NCBI GenBank assembly: GCA_963709505.1
Contig: CAVPXC010000033.1
Span: 9,289-73,288 of the forward strand
Reading direction: 5' to 3'
DNA length: 64,000 nucleotides
From: an uncultured Chloroflexia bacterium
Lineage (GTDB): Bacteria; Chloroflexota; Anaerolineae; JAAEKA01
Shown: positions 4,145 to 56,362 of the stretch, one piece after another
Layout of the letters: each line of letters begins with the position of its first letter
How positions within the stretch are numbered: the stretch's first letter is position 1
Program-made: the position numbers and the translations under genes
Notes under the pieces: model-generated
Database searches by the model: none
What the model was told of the DNA's origin: nothing
What the model saw: only the letters and a program-made list of their open reading frames with translations

Positions 4145-4247
4145 CAATTGTGAATTGTGAATTGTCAATTGACAATTGCTAATTACTCGGAAGCCTCCGG
4201 ATCCGCCATTAACCATTGACAATTGACAATTCACAATTCACAATTAC
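4145..4247. repeat. Inverted pair of heptamer arrays (GTGAATT / AATTCAC family)
   Basis: The left arm (aattgtgaattgtgaattgtcaattgacaattg) and right arm (caattgacaattgacaattcacaattcacaatt) are reverse complements around a small CGGA/TCCG hairpin. Confidence 0.9.
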
Positions 4248-4295
4248 CTCCGTCATTCGTTGTCGCATTCGTTGTGATATTCCTCAGGAGCATTC

Positions 4296-5261
4296 ATGGC
4301 CCTCACAAACAAGTCGAAGCGCTATCCCGTACCAGTGGATGCAGTCGCGGCCGAAATCACCGCATCGACGCCGGCGATCCAGGAAAAGCCCCAGGCGTCG
4401 GTCTTCAAGACCCTGATGGTGCTGTTCAAGGCGCGCGTGGTCAGCCTGCTGTTGATTGCGGCCCTGGGTGGCGCGTTTATCGGCGCAGGCAGTTGGCCCG
4501 GCTGGAACGTGCTGGCGCTGACCCTGTTCAGCGGCTGGCTGGCGGCGTCGGGCGCGTCGGCTCTCAACCAATATATCGAGCGCAAATCCGACGGCACGAT
4601 GGTCCGCACCCGCCATCGCCCGCTGGTGGACGGTACGATCCCGAACCCGAAATGGGTGCCGTGGGTCGGCATCAGCATGATTGCGGCTGCCGTGTTGTGG
4701 ACGTGGACCTTCAACCGCTGGCTCGCAATCTGGCTGGCAGCGGGCGCGTTCATCTACGTCGTGGTCTACACGATCTGGCTCAAGCCGCGCACGCCGCTGA
4801 ACATCGTCATCGGCGGCTTCGCGGGAAGCGCGGCTGTGCTCAGCGGTGCGGCAGCGGCCGGCCATTGGAACGCCCCCGGCGCGCTGGTGCTGGCCTTGTT
4901 GCTCTTCCTGTGGACGCCCACCCATTTCTGGAGCCTGGCGATCGTCTATCGCAACGACTACGCACGCAGCAGCACCCCCATGCTGCCGGTGATGGTCAGC
5001 CCCCGAAAGGCGGCCTTTTGGGTCCTCCTACACACTGCGGCGACAGGCTTTGCGGCTTTGATGCTGGCCTTCGACCCTGCGCTCGGCCTGATCTACCTGA
5101 TTCCGGTGGCCCTGGCGACGCTGGATATGATCATCCGCAACCTACGGCTGTTGCGCACGCCCACCGCCAAGAACGCCCGCTCGTTGTTCATCGCCTCCAA
5201 CATGTATCTGGCGATCGTGTTGGTGATGTTGTGTATCGACGTGGTGATCACATCGTTCTAG
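4296..5261 (+). CDS. ctaB: Protoheme IX farnesyltransferase (heme O synthase)
   Basis: UbiA-type polytopic protein with NQYIERKSD, MVRTRHRP and TPTHFWSLA motifs. Confidence 0.9.
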   Translation: MALTNKSKRYPVPVDAVAAEITASTPAIQEKPQASVFKTLMVLFKARVVSLLLIAALGGAFIGAGSWPGWNVLALTLFSGWLAASGASALNQYIERKSDGTMVRTRHRPLVDGTIPNPKWVPWVGISMIAAAVLWTWTFNRWLAIWLAAGAFIYVVVYTIWLKPRTPLNIVIGGFAGSAAVLSGAAAAGHWNAPGALVLALLLFLWTPTHFWSLAIVYRNDYARSSTPMLPVMVSPRKAAFWVLLHTAATGFAALMLAFDPALGLIYLIPVALATLDMIIRNLRLLRTPTAKNARSLFIASNMYLAIVLVMLCIDVVITSF

Positions 5262-5343
5262 AGATTGGACCTTTCTTCGGAGAAAGGTCCAATCTGGTTT
5301 TGAAACGCGAGATCGGACCTTTCTCGGAAGAAAGGTCCGATCT
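5262..5343. repeat. Two tandem GGACC-family hairpins between convergent ctaB and a bactofilin gene
   Basis: 5262-5295 and 5310-5343 each form a perfect 15-bp stem with a TCGG or CGGA loop. They are probably a bidirectional terminator. Confidence 0.85.
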
Positions 5344-5361
5344 TTTGGCTCGATCATGGAA

Positions 5362-5829
5362 TCAATCCGGCTCTTCCGGCTCCCCATCATCAGGAGATTG
5401 AGGCTCGACGGCTGGCAGGTAGGACCGCCAATCTTCGACGGTTGCCGGGGCCGCACGTGGCGGTTCGACTCTCGTCCCGTCGGCCTTCGTCATGTGGAAC
5501 TCGCCGTTGTAGAAGCCGCCTTCTTGCACGATCAACCGGCTGGCCGTTACCGTGGCCTCTACCTGGCCTGTGGGTGTGATCTTGAAGATGTCCTGACAGG
5601 TAACCTCGCCTTCCAGCTCGCCGGCGACGGTAACATTGCTGGCAGTTACCTTAGCCTTGACACGGGCGCCTTGCTCCACAATCAGCGTTCCCTGGCAATG
5701 GATCTCGCCTTCGGCTTGTCCTTCTACTCTCAGATTCTGTTCGGTTTTGTAGAGACCGTCGAAGTGGGAGTCGCGGTCCACTAAACTCTCGCTGTTGGTG
5801 CGTTCACCTGCGGGTATTGTCGTCGCCAT
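5362..5829 (-). CDS. Bactofilin (polymer-forming cytoskeletal protein)
   Basis: Repetitive beta-helix pattern (G.L.V.....V.G.V.A..V.V.G...G.V) with an acidic, proline-rich tail. Confidence 0.8.
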   Translation of the reverse strand: MATTIPAGERTNSESLVDRDSHFDGLYKTEQNLRVEGQAEGEIHCQGTLIVEQGARVKAKVTASNVTVAGELEGEVTCQDIFKITPTGQVEATVTASRLIVQEGGFYNGEFHMTKADGTRVEPPRAAPATVEDWRSYLPAVEPQSPDDGEPEEPD

Positions 5830-5834
5830 GGCCG

Positions 5835-10889: not shown

Positions 10890-11096
10890 TGGTAGATTGG
10901 TAATGGATTGGTAGATTGGTGGATTGGTAGATTGGTAAATTGGTGGATTGGTGGATTGGTGGATTGGTAGATTGGTAGATTGGTGGATTGGTGGATTGGT
11001 GGATTGGTGGATTGGTAGACTGGTAGATTGGTGGATTGGTAGACTGGTAGACTGGCGCTCGGTACCAATCTACCAATCTACCAATCTACCGATCAC
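10890..11096. repeat. About 20 tandem octamers (GGTRGATT) followed by about 4 inverted copies (AATCTACC)
   Basis: Read directly from the sequence. Translating the array produces the spurious PIYQSTN-repeat ORFs on the minus strand. Confidence 0.95.
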
Positions 11097-11185
11097 CAAC
11101 AAACGAGGTATACCCATGACCCGCTTCCGTGCAACGCCCTTGACGCAAATGACAGATAACGCATCGCGTCAGTAATCTCAAATAC

Positions 11186-11341: not shown

Positions 11342-12277
11342 GTGTCAACCACCAGTCCTACCCCTTCCCCTGCGCTGTCTACGCGCAAAAAAGTTACTAC
11401 CCGCACCTTCCGCCAGAAGAAGCAGCGCGGCGAGCTCATCACGATGCTCACCGCGTATGACTACATGACCGCCCAGGTCGTGGATCAGGCCGGCATCGAC
11501 TGCATCCTGGTCGGCAACTCGCTGGGCATGGTCGTGCTGGGCTACGCCAACACCCTGCCGGTAACCATGGAGGATATGCTGCACCACTGCAAGGCAGTGG
11601 CGCGTGGCGCGCATATGCCGCTGCTGATCGGCGACATGCCCTTTATGTCGTACCAGGTCTCGGTCGAGGAAGCCGTGCGCAACGCGGGCCGTTTCCTCCA
11701 AGAGGCCGGCATGGAAGCGGTCAAGCTGGAAGGCGGTCGCGAGCGCGCCGATGCCGTGCGCCAGATCGTGGCAGCCGGCATCCCGGTCATGGGTCACATC
11801 GGCCTGACTCCGCAGAGTGTCTCCCAGTTCGGCGGCTTTGTGCCGCAAGGCAAGACCGCCGCGGCCGCCAGGCGCCTCGTCGAGGACGCCCAGATCCTGC
11901 AAGACGCCGGCTGCTTCAGCATCGTACTCGAATCCGTTCCCGCCCAACTCGCCGAATTGATCTCCAAGCAGCTCGAGATCCCCACTATCGGCATCGGCGC
12001 GGGTATCGGCTGTGACGGCCAGGTGCTGGTGATCCATGACCTGCTGGGCTTGTTCGACCGCTTTGTGCCCAAGTTCGTCAAGCAATATCGCAAATTGCAC
12101 GGCACGGTCGTCGAAGCTCTGGAGGAGTACAAGGCAGAGGTAGAGGCCCAAATCTTCCCCGCATTCGAACACTCGATCTTCATGGAGGAGACTGAGTGGC
12201 AGGCCTTGCTGGCTGCCCTCGAACCCCAGATCGCGCCGTCAAATGGGCGAGAGTCGACGGTGAACGGTGAACAGTGA
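11342..12277 (+). CDS. panB: 3-Methyl-2-oxobutanoate hydroxymethyltransferase
   Basis: GTG start after AAAGGAGG. Motifs MLTAYDY, LVGNSLGMVVLGY, MGHIGLTPQS. The last codons and the stop lie inside the GTGAACR array. Confidence 0.9.
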   Translation: MSTTSPTPSPALSTRKKVTTRTFRQKKQRGELITMLTAYDYMTAQVVDQAGIDCILVGNSLGMVVLGYANTLPVTMEDMLHHCKAVARGAHMPLLIGDMPFMSYQVSVEEAVRNAGRFLQEAGMEAVKLEGGRERADAVRQIVAAGIPVMGHIGLTPQSVSQFGGFVPQGKTAAAARRLVEDAQILQDAGCFSIVLESVPAQLAELISKQLEIPTIGIGAGIGCDGQVLVIHDLLGLFDRFVPKFVKQYRKLHGTVVEALEEYKAEVEAQIFPAFEHSIFMEETEWQALLAALEPQIAPSNGRESTVNGEQ

Positions 12278-12322
12278 ACGGTGAACAGTGAACGATGAAC
12301 AGTGAACAGTGAACAGTGAGCG
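12260..12322. repeat. Nine tandem heptamers (GTGAACR)
   Basis: Read directly from the sequence. In this orientation the array supplies TGA in all three frames. Confidence 0.95.
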
Positions 12323-12380
12323 GAAACGCAAACCGTTAGCTCTGCTTCCTGCTTATTGTTCACCGGCTCCCAAAAAGACC

Positions 12381-13299
12381 ATGCCCGCAAACTCCTCTGT
12401 ACTGATCGTCGGCACCGGCGCGCTCGCCAGCCTCTTCGCCGCGCGCCTGGCCGCGGCCGGGTGCGCCGTCACCATGCTCGGATCCTGGCCCGATGGCCTG
12501 GCCGCGCTTCAGACACATGGCGTGCGTCTTCTCGACGCGGATGGTGGCGTTAAGACCTACCCTGTGCATGCCACCGGAGATCCGGCCGAGTGTCGCGGGA
12601 TTCTGCAGTCGTTCGTCCTGGTCAAGGCCTGGCAAACCGCGCGCGGCCATGCAGCTTTCCGGCTGCCTCCCCTCTGCTGGGCTTGTGCTCACCCTACAAA
12701 ACGGATGGGGCAACCGAGAAATCCTTGAGCAGGCCCTTGGCCCAGAGCGCGTCGCCCTGGGTGTAACAACTCTGGGCGCAACGCTGGTGGAGCCAGGCTT
12801 CGTGCGCCTGGGCGGACAAGGGCCGATCACCCTGGGCGTCCATCCGCGGCTGCAGCCACTGACTGACCTACTGGTGCTGGCCGGCTTCGACGTGCGCACA
12901 GCAGACGACGTTGCCGGCTTGGCCTGGGGCAAGCTGGTGATCAACGCCGCGATCAATCCGTTGACTGCGCTGCTGCGCGTACCGAACGGCGAGCTGTTAG
13001 CCCGGCCGGCCGCGCGTGAGCTGATGGGCCTCGCGGCCCGCGAGGCTGCCCAGGTGGGCGCCGCCCAAGGCCTGCACCTCCCCCTAGCCATCGCCGCCGA
13101 CCCGGTGGCCGCCGCCGAAGACGTGGCACGTCGAACTGCGGCCAACCACTCGTCGATGTACCAGGACGTCCAGCACGGCCGTTCAACCGAGATCGACGCC
13201 ATCTGCGGCGCGATCGTCGAGGCCGGCGAGCGCCTGGGCATGCCAACGCCGGTCAATCGGACGTTGTGGCTGTTGGTGCGGGCGATCAGTGAAGGGTGA
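12381..13299 (+). pseudogene. panE: 2-Dehydropantoate 2-reductase with an apparent +1 frameshift
   Basis: VLIVGTGALASLFAARL...FVLVKAWQT (frame of 12381) continues as AAMQLSGCL...TLQNGWGN...SSMYQD (frame of 12493). The shift is at about 12645, in a GC-dinucleotide run. Confidence 0.75.
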
Positions 13300-13380
13300 A
13301 GGGTGGAGAGTGGAGGGTGCGGAGTGCATAGTAAACGACAGTTCTCTCCACTCTCCACCCTCCACTCTCCACCCTCCACT
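13290..13380. repeat. Inverted pair of heptamer arrays (GTGGAGR / YCTCCAC)
   Basis: The left arm 13290-13327 and right arm 13345-13380 are reverse complements. Confidence 0.9.
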
Positions 13381-15127: not shown

Positions 15128-15146
15128 ACCTGCCCTGCTCGGGCCG

Positions 15147-16592: not shown

Positions 16593-17449
16593 TCCGCGTC
16601 GCTGTCCTAATCTCGCGCATTCGCGTCGAGGAAAAGCTGTTGCTCGCGGCGCTTGAGACCGCCGGTGCTGCCGTCCAGATCGTCAACGACAGCGAGCTGG
16701 TGTTTGCACTGGGCGACGGCAACAGCGTCCTTAATGCCGATGTGGTGCTGGAGCGCTCGGTCAGCACGGCGCGCGGGCTATATGCCCTGCGTCTGTTCGA
16801 ACACACGGGCCTGCCCACGGTCAACAGCTATTACACCGCCTCCACCTGCGCCGACAAGGTGCTGACTACTGCAGCGCTGGACGAAGCCGGGATCGCACAG
16901 CCACGCGCCCGCGTAGCCCTTACTCCCCAGGCAGCCCTGGCCGCCATCGAAGAGCTGGGCTACCCGGCCGTGATCAAGCCCGTTGTCGGCTCGTGGGGCC
17001 GGCTGCTGGCGCGCATCAACGACCGGGACGCGGCCGAGGCGCTGTTGGAGCACAAAGAGGTACTGGGCTCTTACCAGCACAGCATCGTCTACATCCAGGA
17101 GTTCATCGCCAAACCGGGCCGCGATATCCGCGCCTTCGTCATCGGCGACAAGACGGTCGGCGCCATCTACCGCCACTCTGAACACTGGATCACCAACACC
17201 GCCCGCGGCGGCCAAGCCTCGAAATGCCCGGTCACCCCCGAGATCGACGACCTCTGCCGCAGAGCGGCGCAGGCCGTCGGTGGCGGCGTGCTTGCTATCG
17301 ATCTACTGGAAGACCCCGACCGCGGCTTCCTGGTCAACGAAGTCAACCACACAATGGAGTTCCGCAACAGCATCGAGCCGACGGGTGTGGATATTCCGGC
17401 GCGGGTGGTGGAGTATGTGCTGCGGCGGGCAAAAGCGAGAAACCCGTAA
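16589..17449 (+). CDS. lysX: Alpha-aminoadipate-LysW ligase (RimK-type ATP-grasp)
   Basis: ATG overlaps the lysW stop (ATGA). ATP-grasp pattern [13 protein letters not shown]...YIQEFI. Gene context supports the call. Confidence 0.85.
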
Positions 17450-17492
17450 AGCGTAAGGCGTAACCCGGAAGGCGGAGGCGGAAATCCCCTGC

Positions 17493-17597
17493 TGATCGCT
17501 CACAACCAATCGCTCACCGCTTAACAAATTGCCGCCAATCGCTCACCACTCATCGCTCACCGCTAATCGCTCATTACTTATCGATCACCGATCACCC
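17493..17597. repeat. Degenerate tandem array (ATCGCTCAYY units)
   Basis: Read directly from the sequence. Its reverse-complement family (GATGAGY) reappears at 18676-18712, on the other side of lysY. Confidence 0.8.
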
Positions 17598-18673: not shown

Positions 18674-18718
18674 ATAATGAGTGATGAGCGGTGAATGATG
18701 AGTACCGAAGGCGGAGAG

Positions 18719-20860: not shown

Positions 20861-20993
20861 CGCTGAATGATGAGTGATGAATGCGGAATGCGGAATGCGG
20901 AATTTGGCCGCTACTTAGAATTCCACCATTCTGCACTCCGCACTCTGCACTCCGATCACTCTGCACTCCGCATTCATCATTCATAATTCAGCA
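20861..20993. repeat. Inverted pair of heptamer arrays (GAATGCG/GATGAGT family)
   Basis: The left arm gaatgatgagtgatgaatgcggaatgcggaatgcgg is mirrored by ...ccgcattcatcattcataattc. Confidence 0.85.
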
Positions 20994-21012
20994 TTCCCTC
21001 CCGGAGACCCCC

Positions 21013-22167
21013 ATGTCCCTAGAAAACTACCACATCATCGAATCGACCCTACGCGAGGGCGAGCAGTTTATCGGCGCCCAGTTTACGCGTGAGCAGAAGA
21101 TCCGCATTGCCCATGGCTTGGACGGATTTGGCGTCGAGTATCTGGAACTCACCTCGCCACTGGCGTCGCCCGGCTGCTTGGACGACATCAAGACGATCGT
21201 CGGTTTAGGCCTGCGCGCGCGCATCTTGACCCACATCCGTTGCCACAAGGACGACGCCAAGATCGCACTCGAAACCGGCGTGGACGGGCTGGACGTCGTA
21301 ATCGGCACCTCGTCGCAGTTGCGCCAGTTCAGCCACGGAAAGAGTATCGACGAGGTCATCGACGTGGCGGCCGAGGTGCTGACCTTCATCCGCAGCCAGG
21401 CGCCAAACATCGAGCTGCGCTTCAGCACCGAAGACTCCTTTCGCAGCGAAGAAAAGGAATTGCTGCGGGTTTACCTGGCCGTCGACAAGTTGGGCGTGGT
21501 CAACCGGTTGGGCACAGCGGATACCGTGGGGATCGCCACGCCCACCCAGGTGTTACGGCTGGTCAGCACGTTGCGCCGCCTGACCACGGCGGACATCGAG
21601 TTCCACGGCCACAACAACTCCGGCTGCGCTGTGGCTAACGCATTCGCGGCGCTGGAAGGCGGGGCAACCCACATCGACACCACCGTTCTGGGAATCGGCG
21701 AACGCAACGGCATCACTCCCCTCGGCGCGTTCGTGGCCCGCATGATCACCTACGACCGGGCCACGGTGTTGCGCAAGTACCGCCTGCCGCGGCTGCGCGA
21801 CCTCGAGCTGATGGTCGCCGACATGGTTGGTGTGGACATTCCGTTCAACAACTGCATCACCGGTTTCAGCGCTTTCACCCACAAGGCAGGAATCCACGCC
21901 AAGGCGATCATCAACACGCCGGAGACCTACGAAGCAATCAATCCGCACGACTTCGGCATGAAGCGGTACATCTCGATCGCCCACCGCCTCACCGGTTGGA
22001 ACGCGGTCAAGGCTCGTGCTGAGCAGCTTGGTCTCGACCTGGACGACACCCAAATCAAGGCGCTGACCCAGCACATCAAGGCTCTCGCCGACGAGAAACC
22101 GCTGGGGTTGGACGATGTGGATGAGTTGTTGCATACGTGGGGGAATGGTAGATTGGTAGATCGGTAG
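21013..22167 (+). CDS. hcs: Homocitrate synthase
   Basis: [24 protein letters not shown] and the [14 protein letters not shown] signature. Lys-cluster context. The 3' end runs into the octamer array (GNGRLVDR*). Confidence 0.85.
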
Positions 22168-22251
22168 ACTGGTAGATTAATAGATTGGTAGATTGGTGGC
22201 GACAGTGTGCCCAATCGACCAGTTTACCAATCAATTAATCTACCAATCTAC
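22145..22251. repeat. Inverted pair of octamer arrays (GGTAGATT / AATCTACC)
   Basis: Same unit family as 10890-11096. Confidence 0.9.
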
Positions 22252-22266
22252 CCCCGGAGGTAACCC

Positions 22267-24375
<2,109 letters not shown>

Positions 24376-24390
24376 GACCCTCCGGCTTCC

Positions 24391-24425
24391 GAGTTCTGAG
24401 TTCTGAGTTATGAGTTACGAGTTGC
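24391..24425. repeat. Five tandem heptamers (GAGTTMY)
   Basis: Read directly from the sequence. The adjacent TCCGGCTTCCGAGTT is related to the hairpin at 42783-42870. Confidence 0.85.
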
Positions 24426-24468: not shown

Positions 24469-25815
24469 ATGCCAACTATCTGTCTGATCCCTGGCGACGG
24501 TGTAGGCCAGGAAGTTATCCCCGCAGCGGCGCGCGTGCTGGCTGTGATTGTGCCGGATTTCAAGTTTGTCGAGGCCGAGGCTGGCTGGAGCTGCTTCGAG
24601 CGGCACGGCACGGCCTTGCCCGAGGCGACGCTGGCCGCGGTAGCCGCGGCGGACGGTACGCTCTTTGGAGCTACTCAATCGCCGATCAACCCCCTCCCCG
24701 GCCCTCCCCCTGCGAGGGGGAGGGAGTCAGATTCCATCCTCAGCACTTCCCCTTGCACGGGGTCTGACTCCCTCCCCCTCGCAGGGGGAGGGCCGGGGAG
24801 GGGGTTCTACCGCAGTCCGATCCTCACCATGCGCAAACACTTCGATCTCTACGCCAACCTCCGTCCTGTCAGCAGTCCCGACCTAAGAGGGCGCGCGCCT
24901 GACGGCATTGCTCCCCGCTCTCCGCTCCGCGCTTCCCCGGTTGACCTGCTCATCGTCCGCGAAAACACCGAGGGCCTCTACGCCGGCCGCGAGCGCCTCG
25001 AGGGTGACACCGCCATCGCCGAGCGCGTCATTACCCGCCGCGCCAGCGAGCGCATCGCACGCGTCGCCTTCGACCAGGCAAGGCAGCGTGCCCAGCGACG
25101 CCCTCCGTCATTGACAATTGACAATTCACAATTCACAATTGACAATTCCTCTGTTACCATCGTCCACAAAGCGAACGTGCTCAAGCTCACCGATGGCTTG
25201 TTTCGAGAAACGTGTCTCGACGTCGCGAGAGAGTACCCCGATGTGACGGTGAATGAACTACTGGTAGACGCTGCAGCGATGTGGCTGGTAAGGGATCCTG
25301 CTCGTTTCGACGTGATCGTCACCACCAACCTGTTCGGCGACATCCTGTCCGACCTGGCGGCCGGGCTGATAGGCGGGCTGGGCGTCGCGCCGTCGGCCAA
25401 CGTTGGCGCGGGGCGGGTAGCGGTCTTCGAGCCCGTGCACGGCAGCGCGCCCGATATCGCCGGCAAGGGCATCGCCAACCCGGTCGGTGCAATACTGAGC
25501 GGCGCGATGCTGTTGGAACACATCGGCCGGCCAGATGCCGCGCAACGGGTACGCCAGGCCGTCGCGGCAGCCCTGGCCGATGGCATCATGACGCCCGACC
25601 TAGGCGGTACGGCGACGACCGACCTGGTCACGAACGCCGTCATCGGACACTGTAGTCTGCCGAAACATCCACTACGAAGACTCGGGGCTGACTCTCGTAA
25701 GCGCCAGATAGCGCAAAAAAAGCTGTCCGAGTTCTTTCGAGACTCGCTGCTCGTTGATGCCGACCTGGATCTGATCCAGGACAAGAGCCTACCCAGGGAT
25801 AACATCGATCTATAA
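24469..25815 (+). CDS. hicdh: Homoisocitrate dehydrogenase (isopropylmalate DH family) carrying in-frame repeat insertions and a C-terminal extension
   Basis: [39 protein letters not shown] and [19 protein letters not shown] motifs. The extra segments map onto repeat DNA. Confidence 0.8.
24688..24806. repeat. 119-nt nested palindromic element (perfect 44-bp arms) inside hicdh
   Basis: The arms 24688-24731 and 24763-24806 are exact reverse complements. Each arm also holds CCCTCCCCCT-gcg-AGGGGGAGGG. The element is translated as [40 protein letters not shown]. Confidence 0.95.
25109..25149. repeat. Heptamer array (CAATTSA) read in frame inside hicdh
   Basis: cattgacaattgacaattcacaattcacaattgacaattcc encodes [15 protein letters not shown]. 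Same family as 4145 and 55165. Confidence 0.9.
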
Positions 25816-29802: not shown

Positions 29803-30194
29803 TTGGCGGCAATGGAACTTAACTATCTGGGAGTACGCAGCATTCAACCTATTGACGAACTGGATACCTTCCCGGCGCCTGCTGGCCTGGGCCGCGTCAC
29901 CATGACCTCGGACGAGTTGACAGCCCTTTGTCCCGTGACCGGCCAGCCGGACTTCTACGTGCTCACGATCGAATACGAGCCGGGCCACTGTGCATCGAGT
30001 CAAAGAGCCTCAAATTGTATCTCTGGCACTTCCGCGACCGCGGGGTATTCTGCGAGCAACTGGCGGTCGATATCCGAGACAAAGTCATAGCGACGATCCA
30101 CCCGAAGACCTGCACGGTCAAGCTGGTCCAAAAAGCGCGTGGCGGCATCACTATCGAAGCGCTGTCGGAGTATCGGCGAAGCAGTGAACAGTGA
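29803..30194 (+). pseudogene. queF: NADPH-dependent 7-cyano-7-deazaguanine reductase with an apparent -1 frameshift
   Basis: LCPVTGQPDFYVLTIEYEPG (frame 29803) joins CIESKSLKLYLWHFRDRGVFCEQLA (frame 29928). The shift is at about 29985. The stop lies inside the GTGAACR array. Confidence 0.75.
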
Positions 30195-32743: not shown

Positions 32744-33801
32744 GACAGTCAACAGCAAAAGCAGTTGGAGCGCTGCTGGCCGGCGCGCTCTTGCTGGTAG
32801 CATGCAGCCAGAGGACGGCGCAGCAACTGCCGGCGGCGGCGCCGTCCCCTACGCCCAGCAGTCTCAGCGGACCAAAGCCCTCCTCCGGCATGGCCCACAT
32901 GATGGCCTCACTGCCAGACGAGAACGTTCCCGCCGCTACGGTCAACGAGGGCAACCAGCCTCTAACCAGCCGCGACGAAAACGGGGTTAAGGTCTTTGAG
33001 CTGACCGCCAAACCGGTTCGCTGGAACTTCGGCGAAGGCATCGAACAGGTGGCCTGGACCTACAACGGCATGGTTCCGGGGCCGCTGATTCGGGTCGTGG
33101 AAGGCGACAACGTGCGCTTCGTCGTCAAAAACGAATTGCCTGAGCCAACGACTATTCACTGGCACGGCATCGAGCTACCGAACAGCATGGATGGCGTGCC
33201 CGGCATGACCCAGGAGGCGATCCAGCCCGGCGAAACTTTTACCTACGAGTTCGTGGCCAAGCCGGCCGGCACCTTCTGGTACCACAGCCACGTCGACAGC
33301 GACGTCCAAATCGGAGTTGGCCTGCACGGTGCCTTTATCATCGACCCCAAGACACCCGATGCCGATCCGCCGGACGTGGACGAGGTGGTGATGCTCAATG
33401 AATGGCGCTTCGTCGACGGCAAGACCTACGCCTCGATGCCGATGTCGGGCATGGACCCCAACTACTTCACCATCAACGGCAAGATCTTCCCGGCCACAAA
33501 GACCGTCCATGCCAAGGTGGGTGACCGCGTGCGGTTGCGCTTCATCGCCGCCGGCCAGTTCGTGCACCCGATGCACCTGCACGGCTTTCCCTTCAAGATC
33601 GTCGCCACCGACGGGCATCCTGTACCCGAGGCGTCACAACTGACCAAGGACACCGTGCTGGTTGCGCCCGGTGAACGCTACGACGTCGAGTTCGTCGCCA
33701 CTGAGCCGGGCATGTGGATGATCCACTGCCACATCACGCATCACACCACCAACGACGGCGAGGAGCCGGGTGGGTTGATGATGGTGGTCAATGTCGAATG
33801 A
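32740..33801 (+). CDS. Small (two-domain-size) multicopper oxidase
   Basis: Copper-ligand blocks HWHG, WYHSH, HPMHLHG and HCHITHH..M. 353 aa with a lipoprotein-like leader. Confidence 0.85.
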   Translation: MRQSTAKAVGALLAGALLLVACSQRTAQQLPAAAPSPTPSSLSGPKPSSGMAHMMASLPDENVPAATVNEGNQPLTSRDENGVKVFELTAKPVRWNFGEGIEQVAWTYNGMVPGPLIRVVEGDNVRFVVKNELPEPTTIHWHGIELPNSMDGVPGMTQEAIQPGETFTYEFVAKPAGTFWYHSHVDSDVQIGVGLHGAFIIDPKTPDADPPDVDEVVMLNEWRFVDGKTYASMPMSGMDPNYFTINGKIFPATKTVHAKVGDRVRLRFIAAGQFVHPMHLHGFPFKIVATDGHPVPEASQLTKDTVLVAPGERYDVEFVATEPGMWMIHCHITHHTTNDGEEPGGLMMVVNVE

Positions 33802-33843
33802 TGAGTGCGGAATGCGGAATGATGAATGGCGGAAGGCGGAAGT
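33796..33843. repeat. Heptamer array (GAATGMG / GGCGGAA units)
   Basis: gaatgatgagtgcggaatgcggaatgatgaatggcggaaggcggaag. The MCO stop codon lies inside it. Confidence 0.8.
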
Positions 33844-36211: not shown

Positions 36212-37657
36212 ATGTCCTTTGCCAAGCGTTTCCGTGGTTTGCTCGAAAACCCGCATTTCTGGGTGGTCGTTGCCGGATTGGCAATCACCACTTGGCTGCA
36301 TTACACCACTAGCCCGCTGCTGTTCGAGCAGCACACCGTCTACCGCTACCTCTACTTCCTGCCCGTCGTCTACGCCGCCCTGCGTTTTGGGCTGTGGGGG
36401 GGATTGCTCGCCGGCCTGACAGCCAGCTTGCTTTTTGCACCGCACATCTGGCTCAAATTCGGCCACTTCCCCGAGGAGAGCCTCAACGATCTTTTTGTCG
36501 CCGTAGTTCTGACCTTGGTGGGCATTTTGACTGGTGCGCTAACTGATGCGGAGCGCCGCCAGCGGCGGAAGCAAGAAACTGCCAGCGCTCAACTGGCCCA
36601 GTCTTTGGCGCAACTGGAGCACCGCACGGCCGCGCTGGAAGAGATGCAACGCTATATCAACAGCGTGCTAGCCTCGCTGAGCTGCGGCGTGATTACTGTC
36701 GACGCAGCGGGCCGCGTCACGACCGATAATCCGATGGCCCGCACCCTCCTAGGCAGCAATTTGATCGGCCAGCCGCTGCCCGCTTCCCTCGTTAACCGGT
36801 CAAAATCAGGCTTTGATGGCTACCGCCAGATGCGGTTGGCCGGCCGGCCGGTAGGAGTGCACGCCGGTCCGCTGACCAGCGGCGATGGCAGGCACATGGG
36901 CACCGTGCTCGTGCTGGACGACCTGACCGAAGTCAAGGCGCTTGAGGAGCAGGTGCGGCGGGCAGAGCGGCTCAGCGCGCTCGGTACGCTTGCGGGCGGC
37001 GTGGCGCACGAAGTGCGCAACCCCGTGGGCATCATCCGCGCCAGCGCGCAGCTCATGGGCTCGCTTCCAAGCGTCGCCGAGGATGTCGGCAGCCACGAGT
37101 ATTTGTCGGTGATTACGCAGGAAGCCGATCGCATCGACCGATTGGTCGAAGATCTGCTCGGCTACGCCCGCGCCGGCGAGCTGAGCCTGGCACCGGTGGA
37201 CATGGAAGAGTTGGTCCGCAGCACCGCCGCGCGACTGGCCTCGCTGACCGAGCAGGCGGACGTCGATCTGGTGGTTGAGGTTGAGCCTCGGCTGCCTCGG
37301 GTTGAAGGCGATGCCGGCAAGCTGGAGCAAGTGCTGTTGAACCTGGGCCTAAATGCCATCGCCGCGATCCAGGCGGCCTATCCACGCCCAGCGGCCGGCG
37401 GCCGGCTGGTACTGTCCGCACAGCGCGCGCCGGGCGGCCTGCACTGCGTCGTGCGCGACAACGGCCAGGGCATGCCCGACGACGTGCGCGTCCACATCTT
37501 CGACCCCTTTTTCACCACCCGCGACGACGGCACCGGCCTGGGCCTGGCCATCGTCCAACGCATCGTCGCCGACCACGGCGGCACAATCGAGGTCGCCAGC
37601 GAGCCTGGCAAGGGCGCTACGTTTACCATCTGGCTGCCTGCGATGAACGAGGAATGA
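36212..37657 (+). CDS. Membrane sensor histidine kinase (PAS, HisKA, HATPase)
   Basis: 4 TM, H-box [11 protein letters not shown]-box LNLGLNAI, G-boxes DNGQGM and GTGLGL. The last codons and the stop lie inside the GATGAAC array. Confidence 0.85.
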
Positions 37658-37757
37658 TGAACGATGAACGATGAATGCGGGCGGACGAAGTTTCCGCATT
37701 CATCGTTCATCGTTCATCATTCCTCGTTCATCATTCCGCATTCATCGTTCATCGCTG
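37642..37757. repeat. Inverted pair of heptamer arrays (GATGAAC / GTTCATC), about 39-bp perfect arms
   Basis: gatgaacgaggaatgatgaacgatgaacgatgaatgcgg is mirrored by ccgcattcatcgttcatcgttcatcattcctcgttcatc. Confidence 0.95.
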
Positions 37758-37825: not shown

Positions 37826-38621
37826 GTGCCCAACTCACCCGTTCAGCTAGCCATCGCCGAATGGCAAGACAAGCAGATCACCGGCACCGAATTGATGCGC
37901 CGGTTGGTGTCCTTCGATAAGTGGATGGTTCCGGTGTCTGAAGCCGCAGCGGCCGAAATGGTTAGCACGAGGAGCAGCCTCGCGCTTGATGTACAGCCAG
38001 GACGGCGAAGGCGTCTCCCGTCTGTACCTCTTCTCCGACGGCGAGGCCTACGATGCGTTCCGCGCGTCCGTGGGGCAGGATGCATCCGAGCAGCACTTTC
38101 TATCCACGACCGGGACATGGATCTTTCAACTCCCCCTGGACCCACTCGACTTCATCGAGATCGATCCGGCGACGCCCTGGCAGATTGGTTATCACAAAGA
38201 GCAGTTCCCCCGCTTGCGAGCCATGGCTGCCGCCGTCGAGGTCGAACTGGCGCTGGCAGCCTTGCGCGCCGGCACGGCAGAGCCCGGCTCACTCACGAAG
38301 GTGCGGCAATACGAGCACTACATTCTAGCCGTCACCAGCCGGGATGGCGGCCACACCCTGGCCCTCGCGCCGGACGATCGCGACCGCACGCTAGCCGCCA
38401 TTTTCACCTCCGACGATAGCTTCCAAGCCTTCCTCCCCGAAGGCGGAGCGCTACTTTCGGACGGGCAGCTCCTGCGCGTTGCGCTGGCCGGCCCACAGCT
38501 CTTCGAACAACTGTCCCGGATGTCGCTGGACGGCGTCGTCTTCAACTGCAGCGGCCCCGGCCGCCCCATCGCCTTTGCCCAGGCATTTCTCACTGTCATC
38601 CTGGAGGCCAAATCGGAATGA
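37826..38621 (+). pseudogene. SseB-like protein (two SseB_N-like halves) with an apparent +1 frameshift
   Basis: GTG 37826 follows AAGGAG. ...KWMVPVSEAAAAEM (frame 37784) joins ...LMYSQDGEGVSRLYLFSDGEAYDAF...AAIFTSDDSFQAF (frame 37986). The family call is weak. Confidence 0.45.
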
Positions 38622-38622
38622 T

Positions 38623-38691
38623 GAATGATGAGCGATGAATGATGATTTCGAAATCATCATTCATCGCTCATCATTCATCATTCATCGTTCA
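38623..38691. repeat. Near-perfect palindrome built from GAATGAT/GATGAGC heptamers
   Basis: ggaatgatgaatgatgagcgatgaatgatgatttc | gaaatcatcattcatcgctcatcattcatcattc. Confidence 0.95.
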
Positions 38692-40198: not shown

Positions 40199-40262
40199 GA
40201 TTGCAGATTGCAAGTGGCAAGTTCAGCACCTGCAACCTGCAACTTGCCACCTGCAACTTGGC
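40199..40262. repeat. Inverted heptamer arrays (TTGCAGR / CTGCAAC)
   Basis: gattgcagattgcaagtggcaagttcag | cacctgcaacctgcaacttgccacctgcaacttgg. Confidence 0.8.
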
Positions 40263-40280
40263 CACCCTCACGGAGGTTGT

Positions 40281-40838: not shown

Positions 40839-41281
40839 TCGCCGCAATGCTGACCGGGCTGCTAGCGCTGGCCGCGTTGATTGCGCCGCTGCCCAGCGCA
40901 GCCAGCGCTGCCGTTGAACGCAGCATCGTGCTCGACGCCCGCATGTTCGCCTACACGCCCGGCCGGCTGCGAGTCAACCAGGGCGACCGGGTAACGCTCA
41001 CACTGCAATCTTCGGATGTCGTCCATGGCCTCTATATCGACGGCTACGGCGTGGACATCCAGGCCGAGCCCGGCCAGCCGGCCGAGACCACCTTCGTCGC
41101 CGACCGCCTGGGTAAGTTTAAGTTCCGCTGCTCCGTGAGCTGCGGTGCCATGCACCCCTTCATGATCGGCGAGCTGGTCGTCGGCCCAAACATCCCGTTC
41201 TGGCGCGCGGTCGCAGCGCTTTTTGTGGTAACCGTAGGCTCTTTGGTAACTGTGTCGCTGTCTCAAAGAAGTGGAGGGTAG
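40835..41281 (+). CDS. Membrane-anchored cupredoxin with a CuA-type site
   Basis: ATGA overlap with the upstream gene. VVHGLYIDG ... C-SVS-C-GAM-H-PF-M matches H...CxxxCxxxHxxM. Confidence 0.7.
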   Translation: MIAAMLTGLLALAALIAPLPSAASAAVERSIVLDARMFAYTPGRLRVNQGDRVTLTLQSSDVVHGLYIDGYGVDIQAEPGQPAETTFVADRLGKFKFRCSVSCGAMHPFMIGELVVGPNIPFWRAVAALFVVTVGSLVTVSLSQRSGG

Positions 41282-41381
41282 AGAGTGGAGAGTGTGGAAC
41301 GCCGAAGACATGCTAGAACTTCAAGTCCTCCACCCTCCACCCTCCACCCTCCACTCTCCACCCTCCACTCTCCACCCTCCC
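41272..41381. repeat. Inverted GTGGAGR / YCTCCAC heptamer arrays filling the intergenic gap
   Basis: gtggagggtagagagtggagagtgtgg ... cctccaccctccaccctccaccctccactctccaccctccactctccaccctcc. Confidence 0.9.
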
Positions 41382-42782: not shown

Positions 42783-42870
42783 TACCTCGTAAGGCGTAAC
42801 ACGTAACTCGGAAGCCGGAACAACTCGATACCCTCCGGGTTCCGGGTTACGTGTTACGCCTTACGAGGTA
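42783..42870. repeat. 25-bp-arm perfect hairpin (TACCTCGTAAGGCGTAACACGTAAC...) with an inner CCGGAAC/GTTCCGG stem
   Basis: The arms are 42783-42807 and 42846-42870. Confidence 0.95.
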
Positions 42871-42882
42871 CGTCCCAAAAAC

Positions 42883-52202: not shown

Positions 52203-53534
52203 ATGTCCGATACGCTGGTCGACGATGCCCGGCAGCGGGCGACTGATATTCTTCATCGCTGCGCGACCCCGCACGGCTTTCGTGCCTCCGCGCTGGCAGC
52301 CGGCTACCCGCAGATTTGGGCGCGCGACAGCATGATCGTCTTCCTGGGCGCGGCAGCCACCGGCGAGCCGGCCCTCCTCGCCGCCGGAAAAGCCTCGCTG
52401 GAGATCATGAGCCGGCACCAATCCCTGCGCGGGATGATCCAGCTCAACGTCAACCCTGACACCGGCTACGTTAGCACGGAGAACGCCGGCTCGGTCGACG
52501 GCAACCTGTGGTACCTGCTGGGCCATTATCTGCACCTGCAATTGACCGGCGACGTTGAGTTCATGGCCAGGCACTGGCGCACCATCGACCGGGCGATGAC
52601 CTGGCTCGAATACCAGGACATGAACGAGTGCGGGCTGCTTGAGGTGCCAGAGGCGGGCGACTGGATGGACCTGCTGGCGGTGCGCTACAACGTCTTGTAC
52701 GACAACGTGCTCTATTACGCCGCGACGCTGGCCTATCAAATCATGTGCCGCCAATTGCCTGAGGGCATACTCTGCCACCAACTCCCTGTGAATCCGTTGG
52801 GCATCCACGAACGGCTCAATCTGCTGATGTGGATCGACCGCTGTTGGGTGGCCGAACACTTTGCCGAACACCTGGACAAGCTCAAGTCCATCCGCCTGGA
52901 ATGGTTCATGCTCTATCACAACATGGGCACGATCTCGAGCCGGCCATACTACCTTCCCTGGGTGGCATTTCGCGAATACGGCGACTGGTGCGACAGCCTT
53001 GGCAATTTGCTGGCGATTCTGACCGGCGTCGCCGATCGCCATCGAGCCGAGCACATCCTGCGCTACATGCATCAGGTAGGCATGGCCGAGCCTTACCCCA
53101 CCAAGGCCATCCACCCGCCCATCTACCCAAACGAGGCCAACTGGCGCGAGTATTACCGCAGCCGCAACCTCAACTTGCCGCATCAGTATCACAACGGCGG
53201 CATCTGGCCGATGATTGGCGGGTTCCACGTCGCGGCGCTGGTGCGTCACGGCTGGACCAGCGAGGCCGAGCGCCTGCTGCACTCCCTGGCCGACGCTAAC
53301 CGCCAGGGCATGTATCAAGACTGGGAGTTCACCGAGTGGATGCACGGCGAGAGCGGCCATCCGATGGGCTTCGGCCAGCAAGGCTGGTCGGCAGCCATGT
53401 TCCTCTACGCCGAGAACGCCGCACGCACCGGTAAGCTGCCGTTGTTCGACGATCTGCTGGCCGCCAAACCCTCGGCGGCCGTCGCGGCCGAGGTGAACGA
53501 GGTCTACGATCACGCCGGTGGGGGGCCGGCTTAG
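52203..53534 (+). CDS. (alpha/alpha)6-barrel glycoside hydrolase (GH100 invertase / GDE_C-like)
   Basis: GYPQIWARDS, GDWMD and a NGGIWP-type pattern. Next to the sugar ABC genes. The family call is approximate. Confidence 0.55.
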   Translation: MSDTLVDDARQRATDILHRCATPHGFRASALAAGYPQIWARDSMIVFLGAAATGEPALLAAGKASLEIMSRHQSLRGMIQLNVNPDTGYVSTENAGSVDGNLWYLLGHYLHLQLTGDVEFMARHWRTIDRAMTWLEYQDMNECGLLEVPEAGDWMDLLAVRYNVLYDNVLYYAATLAYQIMCRQLPEGILCHQLPVNPLGIHERLNLLMWIDRCWVAEHFAEHLDKLKSIRLEWFMLYHNMGTISSRPYYLPWVAFREYGDWCDSLGNLLAILTGVADRHRAEHILRYMHQVGMAEPYPTKAIHPPIYPNEANWREYYRSRNLNLPHQYHNGGIWPMIGGFHVAALVRHGWTSEAERLLHSLADANRQGMYQDWEFTEWMHGESGHPMGFGQQGWSAAMFLYAENAARTGKLPLFDDLLAAKPSAAVAAEVNEVYDHAGGGPA

Positions 53535-53539
53535 TGAGA

Positions 53540-53623
53540 TAGTGCGGTAGTGCGGTAGTGCGGTAGTGCGGTAGTGCGGTAGTGCGATCGTCGTGCCGTC
53601 ATTCCCGCTTTTGCGGGAATGAC
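53540..53623. repeat. Octamer array (TAGTGCGG, about 6 copies) followed by the GTCATTCCCGC-tttt-GCGGGAATGAC hairpin
   Basis: Read directly from the sequence. Confidence 0.9.
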
Positions 53624-53791
53624 GGCGGGAGTGACGATGCTTTAGCAATGGGTATCCCCTGGTCCTGCCGGCTGCACTGACACCCAAACAGGCGCCATGT
53701 CAAAGCTGGTCAGAACCCAGGTTTATTGTGTCGATGAAGTGTGACCACCGGTTCGCACACGAAATCCGTCAAACTCGAAGGAGGAGTCGCT

Positions 53792-55159: not shown

Positions 55160-55164
55160 GCCGA

Positions 55165-55272
55165 GAATTGTCAATTGTGAATGGTCAATTGTCAATTGCT
55201 AATTGACCTTTGACCATTCACAACGACTTTTCTCATTGACAATTCACAATTCCCAATTCACAATTGACAATT
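55165..55272. repeat. Inverted heptamer arrays (AATTGTC / GACAATT family)
   Basis: Same family as 4145-4247. Confidence 0.9.
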
Positions 55273-55283
55273 CTTCCCCCTCC

Positions 55284-56234
55284 GTGAACCACCAACCTCT
55301 TAACCGCCCCCTTCCTACCACGCGGCGCCGCAACCCCTTCCGCTGGCGGCCTGACCAGCAGTGGGAGGGGTATTTGTTTATCCTGCCGAGCTTGCTGGGC
55401 TTTGGCGTCTTCGTCTTTCTCGCGGTTGTAGCCTCGTTTGGGATCAGCTTTTTGGACTGGGGGTTAACCGGGCCGAGGGGCTTTGTGGCCATTGATAACT
55501 ACCGCCAGCTGCTGCGCGATCCCGTGTTTTGGAAGGCGTTCCGCAACACCGCCTTCTACATCATCACGATCGTGCCTTTGCAGCTTGCGCTTGGCTTGGC
55601 CATCGCCGTGGCGCTCAACCAGGCGATCCGGGCGCGCAGCGCCTTCCGCATGATCTATTTCTTGCCCGTGGTGACCACAATCGTCGCCGGCGCGATCGTT
55701 TTTCGCCTGATCCTCGCCAAAAACGGTCCGCTGGCCAACCTGGTCGGAGATGTCGGCGGCCTGCTCGGTCTGCCGCTCCGCCTGCCCGATCTGTTAGGCA
55801 GCACCACGTACTCCAAGTGGTCGGTCGTGCTGTTGACGCTGTGGAAGAACACGGGCTTTACGATGGTGGTCTATTTGGCCGCGCTGCAAGGCGTACCGCA
55901 GGAGCTGTACGACGCGGCCCACGTCGACGGCGCCGGCTCCTGGCAGCGCTTCCGCAACGTGACGTGGCCGATGATCACCCCGACGACTTTCTTCCTCGTC
56001 ATTCTGCAGACCATCGGCGCGTTCCAGCTCTTCACCGAACCCTTCGTGATGACCCGCGGCGGCCCCGCGCAGTCGTCCATGCCGGTCGTCCAGTACATCT
56101 ACGACAACGCCTTCCGCTTCACGCGCATGGGTAAAGCTTCGGCGATCGCCTGGTTCCTTTTCATCTTCATTTTCGGCTTTACACTCGTGCAAAACGTGAT
56201 GCAGCGGCGGTGGGTGCATTATGAGACGGAGTAG
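55284..56234 (+). CDS. ABC sugar transporter permease (MalF/BPD_transp_1 type)
   Basis: GTG 55284 lies just after the repeat (the ATG at 55203 lies inside the repeat). EAA-like loop DAAHVDGAGSWQRFRNVTWP. Confidence 0.8.
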   Translation: MNHQPLNRPLPTTRRRNPFRWRPDQQWEGYLFILPSLLGFGVFVFLAVVASFGISFLDWGLTGPRGFVAIDNYRQLLRDPVFWKAFRNTAFYIITIVPLQLALGLAIAVALNQAIRARSAFRMIYFLPVVTTIVAGAIVFRLILAKNGPLANLVGDVGGLLGLPLRLPDLLGSTTYSKWSVVLLTLWKNTGFTMVVYLAALQGVPQELYDAAHVDGAGSWQRFRNVTWPMITPTTFFLVILQTIGAFQLFTEPFVMTRGGPAQSSMPVVQYIYDNAFRFTRMGKASAIAWFLFIFIFGFTLVQNVMQRRWVHYETE

Positions 56235-56235
56235 A

Positions 56236-56362
56236 TGACTGGGTGACTGGGTGACTGGGTGAAGGGTTTTCCTTTCGGTCCTTTGTCACCAGTCACCCTG
56301 TCACCCTGTCCCCTGACGACCCAGTCGACCCTAGTCACCCAATCACCCAGTCACCCAGTCAC
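56236..56362. repeat. Inverted octamer arrays (GGGTGACT / AGTCACCC)
   Basis: Read directly from the sequence. Confidence 0.9.

Follow-up and report, generated by a model that had tools for sequence, protein, structure and literature searches.

Tandem arrays of 7- and 8-nt units, mostly in fold-back pairs, at gene junctions of a Chloroflexota genome and related loci

Introduction

How do some twenty clusters of short tandem repeats come to lie at the gene junctions of a single bacterial contig, and what do they do there? The question is raised by a stretch of 64,000 nt from an uncultured Chloroflexia bacterium (contig CAVPXC010000033.1, positions 9,289 to 73,288; the whole stretch is called the window below), which has a GC content of about 61% and carries nearly all of its genes on the plus strand. 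A first-pass annotation, made from the letters alone, noticed arrays of 7- and 8-nt units followed by arrays of the complementary unit, compared them with the short tandemly repeated repetitive (STRR) sequences of cyanobacteria, and listed factor-independent terminators, RNA stability elements and recombination hot spots as possible roles. Knowledge of heptamer repeats goes back to 1990, when those of heterocystous cyanobacteria were reportedly described by Mazel et al.

Comparison of the window with related loci, metagenomes and viral contigs gives a partial answer. The arrays are dispensable, fast-turnover DNA that has repeatedly colonised gene junctions, including the junctions inside operons. 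The fuller reading that we put first, with about even confidence, is that they are families of STRR-like fold-back repeats with a fast turnover, which settle at gene junctions and whose transcripts form hairpins between cistrons.

Arrays and their pairing

By our own scorer the window contains 25 tandem arrays of period 7 and seven of period 8, compared with none in five shuffled versions, and the other periods (4-6 and 9-12) lie at background level. Tandem Repeats Finder places period-7 or period-8 arrays at all the coordinates listed in the first-pass annotation, which overlooked one further site (R). The arrays fall into 21 sites, A to U, or about one per 3 kb (Table 1). The earlier statement that at least 20 sites share one design proves too broad, since true inverted pairs account for only 14 of the 21 (A, B, D, G, H, I, L, N, O, P, Q, R, T and U). 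The remaining seven are the lone arrays C, F, J, K, M and S, together with E, in which two non-complementary arrays stand side by side. In the 14 pairs the two arms are 73-100% complementary, with perfect (100%) palindrome cores at N and O. Folded as RNA, the pairs have minimum free energies of -37 to -136 kcal/mol, and their hairpins reach z-scores of -5.5 to -12.6 against dinucleotide shuffles.

The window has about ten recurrent unit families. GTGAACR is shared by C and L, GTGGAGR by D, I and Q, AATTGTS by A, K and T, GGTRGATT by B and H, GAATGMG/GATGAAY by F, G, M, N and O, and CGTAAGG/CGGAAGS by the left array of E and by R; the others occur at single sites. The families named in the first-pass annotation are correct, and CGTAAGG/CGGAAGS, AYCRCTC (the right array of E) and GAGTTMT (J) can be added to them. 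When units are compared across loci by single-linkage clustering, all heptamers chain into one cluster. The left arms had been described as almost free of C, and they are indeed poor in it (0-15%, against about 31% for the genome), but they are not C-free, as GTGAACR, GATGAAC, TAGTGCGG and GGGTGACT each have one C per unit. A G3 tract is fixed only in GGGTGACT; GTGGAGR reaches GGG only where G-variant units join, and GTGAACR, AATTGTS, GATGAAY and GGTRGATT have no G3 tract.

As a separate observation on one family, the sigma-70 -35 consensus TTGACA is contained in each ATTGACA unit as read on the plus strand (25111-25160, and in the arms at 4206-4245 and 55235-55273), and a promoter scan scores inside these arrays.

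From the stop codon to the next start

The elements are fitted closely to the coding sequences around them. At 15-16 of the 21 sites the element starts within -7 to +24 nt of the upstream stop codon, which is often supplied by the first units, and wherever a downstream start can be assigned the 3' arm ends 2-51 nt ahead of it. Those that persist fill the whole junction, with a purine arm rich in stop and start codons after the stop and a C/T arm poor in start codons before the next start. The alignment of LysY extends to its last residue in all relatives, which indicates native C-termini; the arrays therefore fill the junction, and the genes are not truncated. The same placement is seen outside the window: in related loci, 56 of 89 sites lie within -40 to +10 nt of a gene end. 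The description of the arrays as capping gene ends is thus apt as far as it goes; they abut the start of the next gene equally.

The first-pass annotation had also placed the stop codons of six genes inside arrays. This holds for panB, queF, the multicopper oxidase gene and the kinase gene, and it holds in addition for panE, lysX, the homocitrate synthase gene, the gene ahead of site O and the cupredoxin gene. It does not hold for the gene at 55203-56234, which stops 2 nt ahead of array U, and it holds for the rhodanese gene only if an in-frame TGA is read through. The gene in question, which encodes a rhodanese domain (30340-31111, minus strand), has this TGA in mid-domain (…YCT*PAEESS…), and the frame then runs on to a TAA inside array L. 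The in-frame TGA could mark a pseudogene, a sequencing error or a recoded codon.

Two further claims concerned orientation and reading frame. The bracketing of lysY by arrays of opposite orientation is real as sequence, the AYCRCTC units on the right of E and the GAGYGRT units of F being complementary families, and is better read as a C-rich array before a start and a G-rich array after a stop. The arithmetic of stop codons by frame is correct. GTGGAGR arrays are stop-free on both strands, and the pair at site I is read through by an open reading frame (ORF) of 702 aa. This ORF joins hacA and hacB (22267-24375), the large- and small-subunit genes of homoaconitase, which are separate in relatives; the pair and its 154-nt spacer are read as a linker of about 85 aa. 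Array K is likewise translated in frame, within a loop of homoisocitrate dehydrogenase that is variable between orthologues.

Handedness of the pairs

The order of the two arms is nearly fixed. Among the clear pairs of the window and the related loci, 36 of 39 have a G-rich 5' arm and a C-rich 3' arm (20 independent sequences; p 4e-8). Because each pair is an inverted repeat, this polarity holds on both strands, and it is a handedness of the element rather than a strand bias. Pooled 5' arms consist of 33% A, 32% G, 24% T and 12% C, and the 3' arms are their mirror image. Start codons are found at 10.1 per 100 nt in the 5' arms versus 1.4 in the 3' arms, and stop codons at 8.5 versus 4.1. Stop codons can be rejected as the sole cause of the polarity, since 19 of the 20 pairs with stop-free units still obey it. 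Site E has the same order, G-rich past the stop and C-rich ahead of the start, despite its unrelated arrays, and in viral contigs the G-rich arm comes first in 16 of 16 pairs.

Lone arrays show a modest bias that depends on how gene ends are called and is suggestive only. Next to gene ends, the ratio of lone arrays that are G-rich on the sense strand to those that are not is 24:11 in one count, 18:19 in a naive count, and 27:14 once the 3' arms of read-through pairs are taken out.

The polarity may be the orientation that selection tolerates. A purine arm full of stops and starts would be harmless only directly after a gene end, where it would halt stray translation at once, while a start-poor pyrimidine arm would be harmless directly before a gene start, where it would offer no false starts. 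In the RNA, a C-rich arm that emerges second would pair at once and would not be left exposed, for example to Rho.

Turnover among relatives

The best relatives of the LysY-like protein of the window are encoded by metagenome-assembled genomes of Chloroflexota (labelled Chloroflexia or just Chloroflexota), with 80-82% amino acid identity, and no relative closer than about 83% LysY identity was found among genome contigs and metagenome contigs; exact-protein look-ups gave no match. The 160 lysY-anchored loci compared (2.0 Mb in total) contain 128 arrays of period 7, 40 of period 8 and 39 of period 14 (doubled heptamers), with every other period represented by 19 or fewer. Arrays of period 7 or 8 are widespread among Chloroflexota, and the flanking genes in the window are of Chloroflexota as well, which bears out the earlier comparison with STRR sequences in a non-cyanobacterial background. 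The seven loci labelled Planctomycetota or Acidobacteriota have no arrays.

The lys operon is syntenic in the relatives, and this allows the same junction to be followed from genome to genome. Twelve relatives without arrays have a lysX-lysY overlap of 13-19 nt. The two genes are separated by a spacer of 47-605 nt in the window and in loci L004, L005, L006, L012, L016, L019, L020, L024, L031, L043 and L044. Most of these spacers carry arrays, the units are unrelated, and where an array abuts lysX it begins -7 to +6 nt from the lysX stop. The lysY-lysZ and hacA-hacB junctions behave in the same way. The overlap of the genes in array-free relatives, together with the unrelated units at one and the same junction, argues that junctions have been colonised independently many times.

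The arrays are also unevenly distributed over loci. Among the 84 loci of at least 12 kb, 60 are array-free and 15 have 3-12 arrays, whereas a Poisson model expects only 24 to be empty; the trait looks all-or-none per locus sampled.

Dispersal in metagenomes and phages

Metagenome and RNA contigs pile up on site B. In freshwater and wastewater metagenome contigs the depth on arrays B and C is 50-100 times that on the flanking genes, and many different sequences occur between the GGTRGATT arm and its complement. The pile-up and the varied loops together imply that the same families are present at many loci in related environmental genomes.

Phage genomes are also among the hosts of these families. 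Exact three-unit patterns of GGTRGATT and GTGAACR are matched by 7 and 45 IMG/VR contigs, respectively, many of which are array-rich and carry several families. Two such contigs have structural or lysis modules with 10-17 heptamer arrays each. One (L181, 1-14137) has 17 arrays in 14 kb alongside genes for a major head protein (E 3e-85) and for tail proteins. In the other (L206, 1-13892), three or more successive junctions are each filled by an inverted pair that spans from a stop codon to the next start, and the same stretch has genes for a tail fibre and an endolysin. The process that generates or disseminates the arrays must therefore act on phage genomes as well.

These occurrences bear on the most trivial explanation, that the arrays are artefacts of assembly or sequencing. 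The copy number of the longest arrays (B, 166 nt; L, 121 nt) may have been misassembled from short reads, but an artefact as the source of the arrays has a virtually negligible probability. Dozens of independent assemblies show the same architecture, some of their contigs being 0.3-1.3 Mb long, as do viral contigs and Logan contigs built from a large number of DNA and RNA runs. The arrays also respect reading frames and stop and start codons.

Transcription and the terminator question

Contigs from three wastewater metatranscriptomes contain both arms and the loops of the GGTRGATT family. One RNA contig of 379 nt leads from panB into array C, and another leads from the right arm of array B 146 nt into the downstream flank. 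This indicates that the arrays are transcribed, with some read-through, in related strains, and transcription within polycistronic mRNAs is to that extent partly demonstrated.

The leading idea of the first-pass annotation was that the arrays cap genes as factor-independent terminators without U-tracts, or as attenuators. Pairs do form the stable stem-loops expected of intrinsic terminators, many of these strong hairpins start at stop codons, and the pair at site L lies between convergent genes. However, most sites lie between genes of the conserved pan and lys operons and not at the ends of transcription units, and sister genomes, in which the orthologous genes overlap or stand close together, do without the arrays. 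Inspection of the flanks revealed no U-tract or T-run after the arrays, and a scan for terminator-like sequences between 10 and 30 kb gave 7 matches, compared with 13.9 expected, none of them at an array. Furthermore, sites of the related loci in co-directional, convergent and divergent spacers number 59, 8 and 7, against a background of 327, 47 and 51, so that the distribution over spacer types equals background and gene 3' ends are not favoured over divergent spacers. This distribution and the missing U-tracts make it unlikely that the arrays act as terminators; some arrays, moreover, are translated within ORFs, and the RNA contig that leaves array B continues into the flank. We give the terminator proposal, which the data speak against, a very small share of the probability.

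A second possibility accepts the hairpins as selected RNA elements, which would process or stabilise the polycistronic mRNA as RNase III sites or 3'-exonuclease barriers and so set the relative expression of operon genes. RNase III cuts T7 mRNAs at intergenic hairpins and REP (repetitive extragenic palindromic) hairpins protect upstream mRNA, both of them established precedents. The long, nearly perfect stems placed exactly between cistrons, the same architecture in late-gene modules of phages and the array-bearing RNA contigs all agree with this proposal. Against it, in sister genomes the same operons have overlapping genes and are free of arrays, the units at one junction are unrelated between genomes, six lone arrays have no hairpin and those of E are non-complementary, and some arrays are translated. 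The stems themselves also fail to support it. Mismatches compatible with G.U pairing number 20 on the plus strand and 18 on the minus strand, in addition to 25 transversions; there is no excess of G.U over A.C on the sense strand, and hence no sequence signature of selection on an RNA hairpin. We consider selected RNA elements possible but doubtful. No known RNA family was found at the arrays with Rfam.

Roles at the level of DNA, as protein-binding arrays, as cruciform or G-quadruplex structures that organise the nucleoid, or as recombination or Chi-like hot spots, would agree with the strand symmetry of the polarity and with the lack of strand bias among stem mismatches. Heptamers have been considered in such terms elsewhere, since the G-rich heptamers of Xanthomonas were studied as G-quadruplex formers (PMC4692102) and a binding protein was speculated for those of Nostoc (bioRxiv 10.1101/2022.06.06.494920). 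In the present case a single binding protein could hardly recognise units that vary so much, both inside one genome and from genome to genome; most units lack G3 tracts, and sister genomes are array-free; the tight fit to stops and starts points to coding constraints and not to chromosome architecture. DNA-level roles are improbable.

For the preferred reading, that of fast-turnover fold-back repeats transcribed as intercistronic hairpins, some functional consequences can be proposed. The mRNA would fold into hairpins of 25-45 bp that bring a stop codon and the next start together, and this proximity may explain how fold-backs are tolerated in gene pairs that formerly overlapped and were translationally coupled. 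Such hairpins would be natural sites for RNase III or barriers to exonucleases, rather than terminators, and judged by analogy the paired arrays would most plausibly work like REP or BIME (bacterial interspersed mosaic element) sequences or the intercistronic hairpins of T7.

Origin of the arrays

The arrays probably grow and shrink by replication slippage, because loops of 7-8 nt would escape mismatch repair. The second arm could then come from inverted duplication or template switching. Partial support for this step comes from mirrored unit order. At A (2/300) and N (13/300) the order of variant units in the two arms is mirrored above unit-shuffled controls, and at G and N two sub-families are arranged in mirrored composite order across the arms; the remaining pairs have few variant units to compare. 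The mirrored orders, together with the null result for G.U mismatches, fit arms that were copied in inverted form at the DNA level and then decayed. A foldback transposon or miniature inverted-repeat transposable element was considered and rejected, because among copies of a family no target-site duplications, conserved termini or shared flanks were seen, and their loops differ between loci.

Several points weigh against the preferred reading. Slippage in situ accounts neither for the return of a handful of families at unrelated junctions nor for the all-or-none look of the trait or the limitation to periods 7 and 8, and the mirrored order of variant units is significant at A and N only. That selection accounts for the polarity is something we infer, and the orientation bias of lone arrays is modest and sensitive to gene-end calling. 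The stems lack the G.U excess that a selected RNA hairpin might show. Finally, the RNA contigs come from related strains and may contain DNA. The RNA runs share 1-3% of the words of the window and the best DNA runs no more than 19%.

The gaps left by slippage, namely the recurrent families, the all-or-none look and the 7-8-nt unit length, leave room for a dedicated seeding activity. An activity encoded by the genome or by a phage, present in only some Chloroflexota or their phages, would write arrays into junctions; candidates are a templated, telomerase-like polymerase or reverse transcriptase that adds repeats where the DNA is broken, or a nuclease or transposase directed to hairpins. If repeats were added in this way, the two ends of a break would each be extended 5' to 3' with the G-rich unit and then rejoined, which would yield the observed polarity directly. 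Besides the all-or-none look, such an activity would suit the identical families at many loci with unrelated loops and neither conserved termini nor target duplications, the presence of the same families in phage genomes, the strict strand-symmetric polarity (36:3 and 16:0), the unequal arm lengths and the restriction to two unit lengths. If true, enzyme-driven writing would explain together the all-or-none look, the spread of families over hundreds of loci without transposon ends, the 7-8-nt unit and the polarity. However, no candidate gene has been identified, the pattern is the sole basis for the proposal, the mirrored variant or composite order at A, G and N fits inverted copying better, and the units grade into one another by mutation instead of falling into a few fixed templates. 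We therefore regard enzyme-driven writing as rather unlikely.

Relation to known repeats

Heptamer repeats are already known from cyanobacteria, from Xanthomonas (including convergent pairs), from Beggiatoaceae and from Chloroflexus aurantiacus. We regard the present arrays as elements of the kind represented by the cyanobacterial STRR sequences and the GGGAATC repeats of Xanthomonas. They resemble STRR sequences in being tandem heptamers of several families per genome, with many dispersed and mostly intergenic copies, some of them within operons. They differ in having a Chloroflexota host, 8-nt units as well, other unit sequences, and a predominance of hairpin-forming inverted pairs. The canonical STRR units are said to be CCCCAGT, TTGGTCA and CAACAGT; no unit of the window equals any of these, and GTGAACA is one mismatch away from a rotation of CAACAGT, which may serve as a lead only. 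Heptamer repeats of Nostoc and Calothrix have been cited in more recent work (PMC4692102; bioRxiv 10.1101/2022.06.06.494920), and in Nostoc few of the repeats are paired (PMC4692102).

A closer parallel for the pairing is provided by the GGGAATC repeats of Xanthomonas, for which Rehm et al. (2015) counted 70-75 convergent array pairs per genome (PMC4692102). These are also intergenic heptamer arrays, and convergent arrangement is the same G-rich-first polarity as that described above. Their copy number varies between species, and the single or paired type is kept (PMC4692102). In Xanthomonas, a different taxon, one G3-containing unit dominates, whereas here about ten unrelated families occur, mostly without G3, and the arrays are packed from stop codon to next start inside operons. 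Within the phylum, Subirana and Messeguer (2019) described (GATAGRA)n satellites in Chloroflexus aurantiacus (PMC6749651). These are again a heptamer-derived family scattered through the genome, but the paper gives a satellite family of one unit and describes no pairing, polarity, placement at junctions or phages.

The TAACTGA direct repeats of marine Beggiatoaceae, cyanobacteria and Bacteroidetes (MacGregor 2015; PMC4679880) share several features with the present arrays: they are abundant intergenic heptamers with a patchy phylogeny, stop codons in the units and a placement at coding boundaries. They consist of one unit, almost always as direct repeats just upstream of starts, with a single inverted case in 170 sets. 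According to the summary given in the same paper (PMC4679880), Mrazek et al. (2007) found heptamers to be the commonest class of long simple sequence repeats in bacteria, and polymerase slippage or the polymerase footprint was proposed as the reason. Long inverted arms built from short tandem repeats are otherwise seen in the Foldback (FB) and Galileo elements of Drosophila (PMC3573991), which are eukaryotic transposons of kilobase size with a transposase and target-site duplications, so that the architecture alone is alike.

REP/BIME sequences and the RNase III hairpins of T7 are similar in being transcribed, intercistronic hairpins in operons that are able to stabilise or process mRNA. REPs are palindromes of 20-40 nt with a conserved head that are not built from tandem units and are mobilised by REP-associated tyrosine transposases (RAYTs), and T7 sites are unique, conserved sequences. 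The arms described here are tandem 7/8-mers of many families, and assignment to REP/BIME was rejected on this ground. Nor are the arrays a CRISPR locus, as the units are contiguous, head to tail, with no unique spacers.

In the searchable literature we found no description of a Chloroflexota-wide, multi-family fold-back form of 7/8-nt repeats or of its handedness, nor of the stop-to-start fit, of overlapping genes turned into hairpin spacers, or of the occurrence in phages. The lineage offers a clean view of such repeats, with a high density of arrays, many families, sister genomes with and without them, and phage copies. The strand-symmetric, purine-first polarity, the exact stop-to-start fit and the repeated conversion of an overlap into a hairpin spacer provide experimental handles, and these bear on how structured insertions are tolerated in operons with respect to translational coupling, Rho and RNase III. 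On the practical side, short-read assemblies are broken at the arrays, which also give rise to spurious ORF extensions and fusions (hacA-hacB in this case) and insert peptides into enzymes. The typing of strains of filamentous Chloroflexota in wastewater plants could make use of them as well, much as STRR-PCR (amplification primed on STRR sequences) is used for typing Nostoc.

Catalogue of sites

The sites of the window are collected in Table 1. By Pfam assignment and with the sites in place, the pan operon reads panB, C, panE, D, panC, coaX, and the lys operon reads lysX, E, lysY, F, lysZ, lysJ, G, homocitrate synthase, H, hacA, I, hacB, J, homoisocitrate dehydrogenase (with K inside it), lysK. 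The remaining arrays lie in a copper-related cluster and a sugar-uptake cluster.

Table 1. Repeat sites of the window, with make-up, gene setting and folding z-score
Site	Coordinates	Strand	Make-up	Gene setting	z
A	4146..4245		AATTGTS x5-7 / SACAATT x6 inverted pair, 24-nt loop	185 nt past upstream stop; 51 nt ahead of UbiA-family gene start	-10.7
B	10890..11099		GGTRGATT x20 / AATCTACC x4.8 inverted pair, 7-nt loop	in ~590-nt spacer upstream of panB	
C	12257..12323	+	lone GTGAACR x9; single complementary unit at 12347-12355	panB stop TGA (12275-12277) within array	
D	13289..13380		GTGAAGG/GTGGAGR / YCTCCAC inverted pair	panE stop 13297-13299 within array; panC start 13404	-7.4
E	17445..17596	+	two non-complementary arrays: left, G-rich CGTAAGG/GCGGAAG; right, C-rich AYCRCTC (period 7/14/28)	lysX-lysY junction; left begins at lysX stop, right ends 7 nt ahead of lysY start	
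F	18676..18705	+	short lone G-rich GAGYGRT/GAATGAT	3 nt past lysY stop; overlaps lysZ start region	
G	20864..20996		composite inverted pair: TGAATGA then GGAATGC units, mirrored in second arm	lysJ stop 20858; homocitrate synthase start 21013	-9.4
H	22143..22255		GGTAGATT / AATCTACC inverted pair	homocitrate synthase stop 22165-22167 within array; hacA start 22267	-8.2
I	23608..23851		GTGGAGR x7 / YCTCCAC x5 inverted pair, 154-nt spacer	hacA-hacB junction, stop-free	
J	24381..24423	+	lone GAGTTMT x5-6	6 nt past hacB stop	
K	25110..25147	+	lone ATTGACA x5.4	inside homoisocitrate dehydrogenase ORF	
L	30182..30359		GTGAACR x17 / TACTGTT x5 inverted pair	between convergent queF and minus-strand rhodanese gene; queF stop 30192-30194 within left arm	
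M	33796..33842	+	lone GAATGMG/GAATGAT	multicopper oxidase stop 33799-33801 within array	
N	37641..37754		CGATGAA x5 / TTCATCG x8 inverted pair, 39-nt perfect palindrome core	histidine kinase stop 37655-37657 within array	-11.5
O	38616..38691		GAATGAT units, 34+34 nt perfect palindrome	upstream stop 38619-38621 within array; response regulator start 38695	-10.8
P	40199..40266		GATTGCA / CTGCAAC inverted pair	ends 15 nt ahead of ATG at 40281	
Q	41270..41380		GTGGAGR x3.6 / CCTCCAC x7.7 inverted pair	cupredoxin gene stop 41279-41281 within array; next ATG 41382	-5.5
R	42783..42870		37-nt arms, 95% complementary, degenerate CGTAAGG/CGGAAGC heptamers	7 nt past stop at 42776; 13 nt ahead of start at 42883	-12.6
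S	53532..53586	+	lone TAGTGCGG x7	opens with upstream gene's TAG stop	
Small hairpin, separate	53596-53629		perfect hairpin	downstream of site S	
T	55164..55274		AATTGTS / SACAATT inverted pair (family of A and K)	7 nt past solute-binding protein stop	-7.7
U	56236..56362		GGGTGACT x3.4 / AGTCACCC x9.6 inverted pair	2 nt past stop at 56234	-6.8

Other features of the window

The ORF for homoisocitrate dehydrogenase, which includes array K, has further peculiarities. A perfect 44-nt inverted repeat with a 31-nt loop (24688-24806; about -122 kcal/mol) is translated in frame within it; this repeat has no 7/8-mer units and is absent from the orthologues in L001 and L006. The same ORF has an extra insertion near 24880-24940 and a C-terminal extension.

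Other hairpins of the window are not built from the repeat units. Two long non-repeat hairpins lie at 9443-9516 and 51808-51954; the first has 31-nt arms with 97% complementarity and the second 37-nt arms with 86%. A separate REP-like family of palindromes, AGATYGGACCnTTC-TTCG-GAAnGGTCCRATCT, is found at 2202-2235, 5262-5343 and 14240-14326, with compensatory changes; its members, single or paired in tandem, come immediately behind the stop codons of genes (the UbiA-family gene and panC). Downstream of coaX is a tandem repeat of 40 nt in 3.8 copies (15146-15291), and an Rfam match to the DUF3800-IX RNA lies on the minus strand at 62796-62876 (55.7 bits, against a gathering score of 36.8).

The segments 31192-34296 and 36176-43998 together look like a copper-handling cluster. 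Its members include a multicopper oxidase, a YtkA-like protein, a PCYCGC protein, cupredoxin/COX2-like proteins, a histidine kinase and a sigma-54-type response regulator. It also contains a highly repetitive, Met/His-rich ORF of 481 aa, which has no Pfam match and whose DNA shows periods of 105, 180 and 69.

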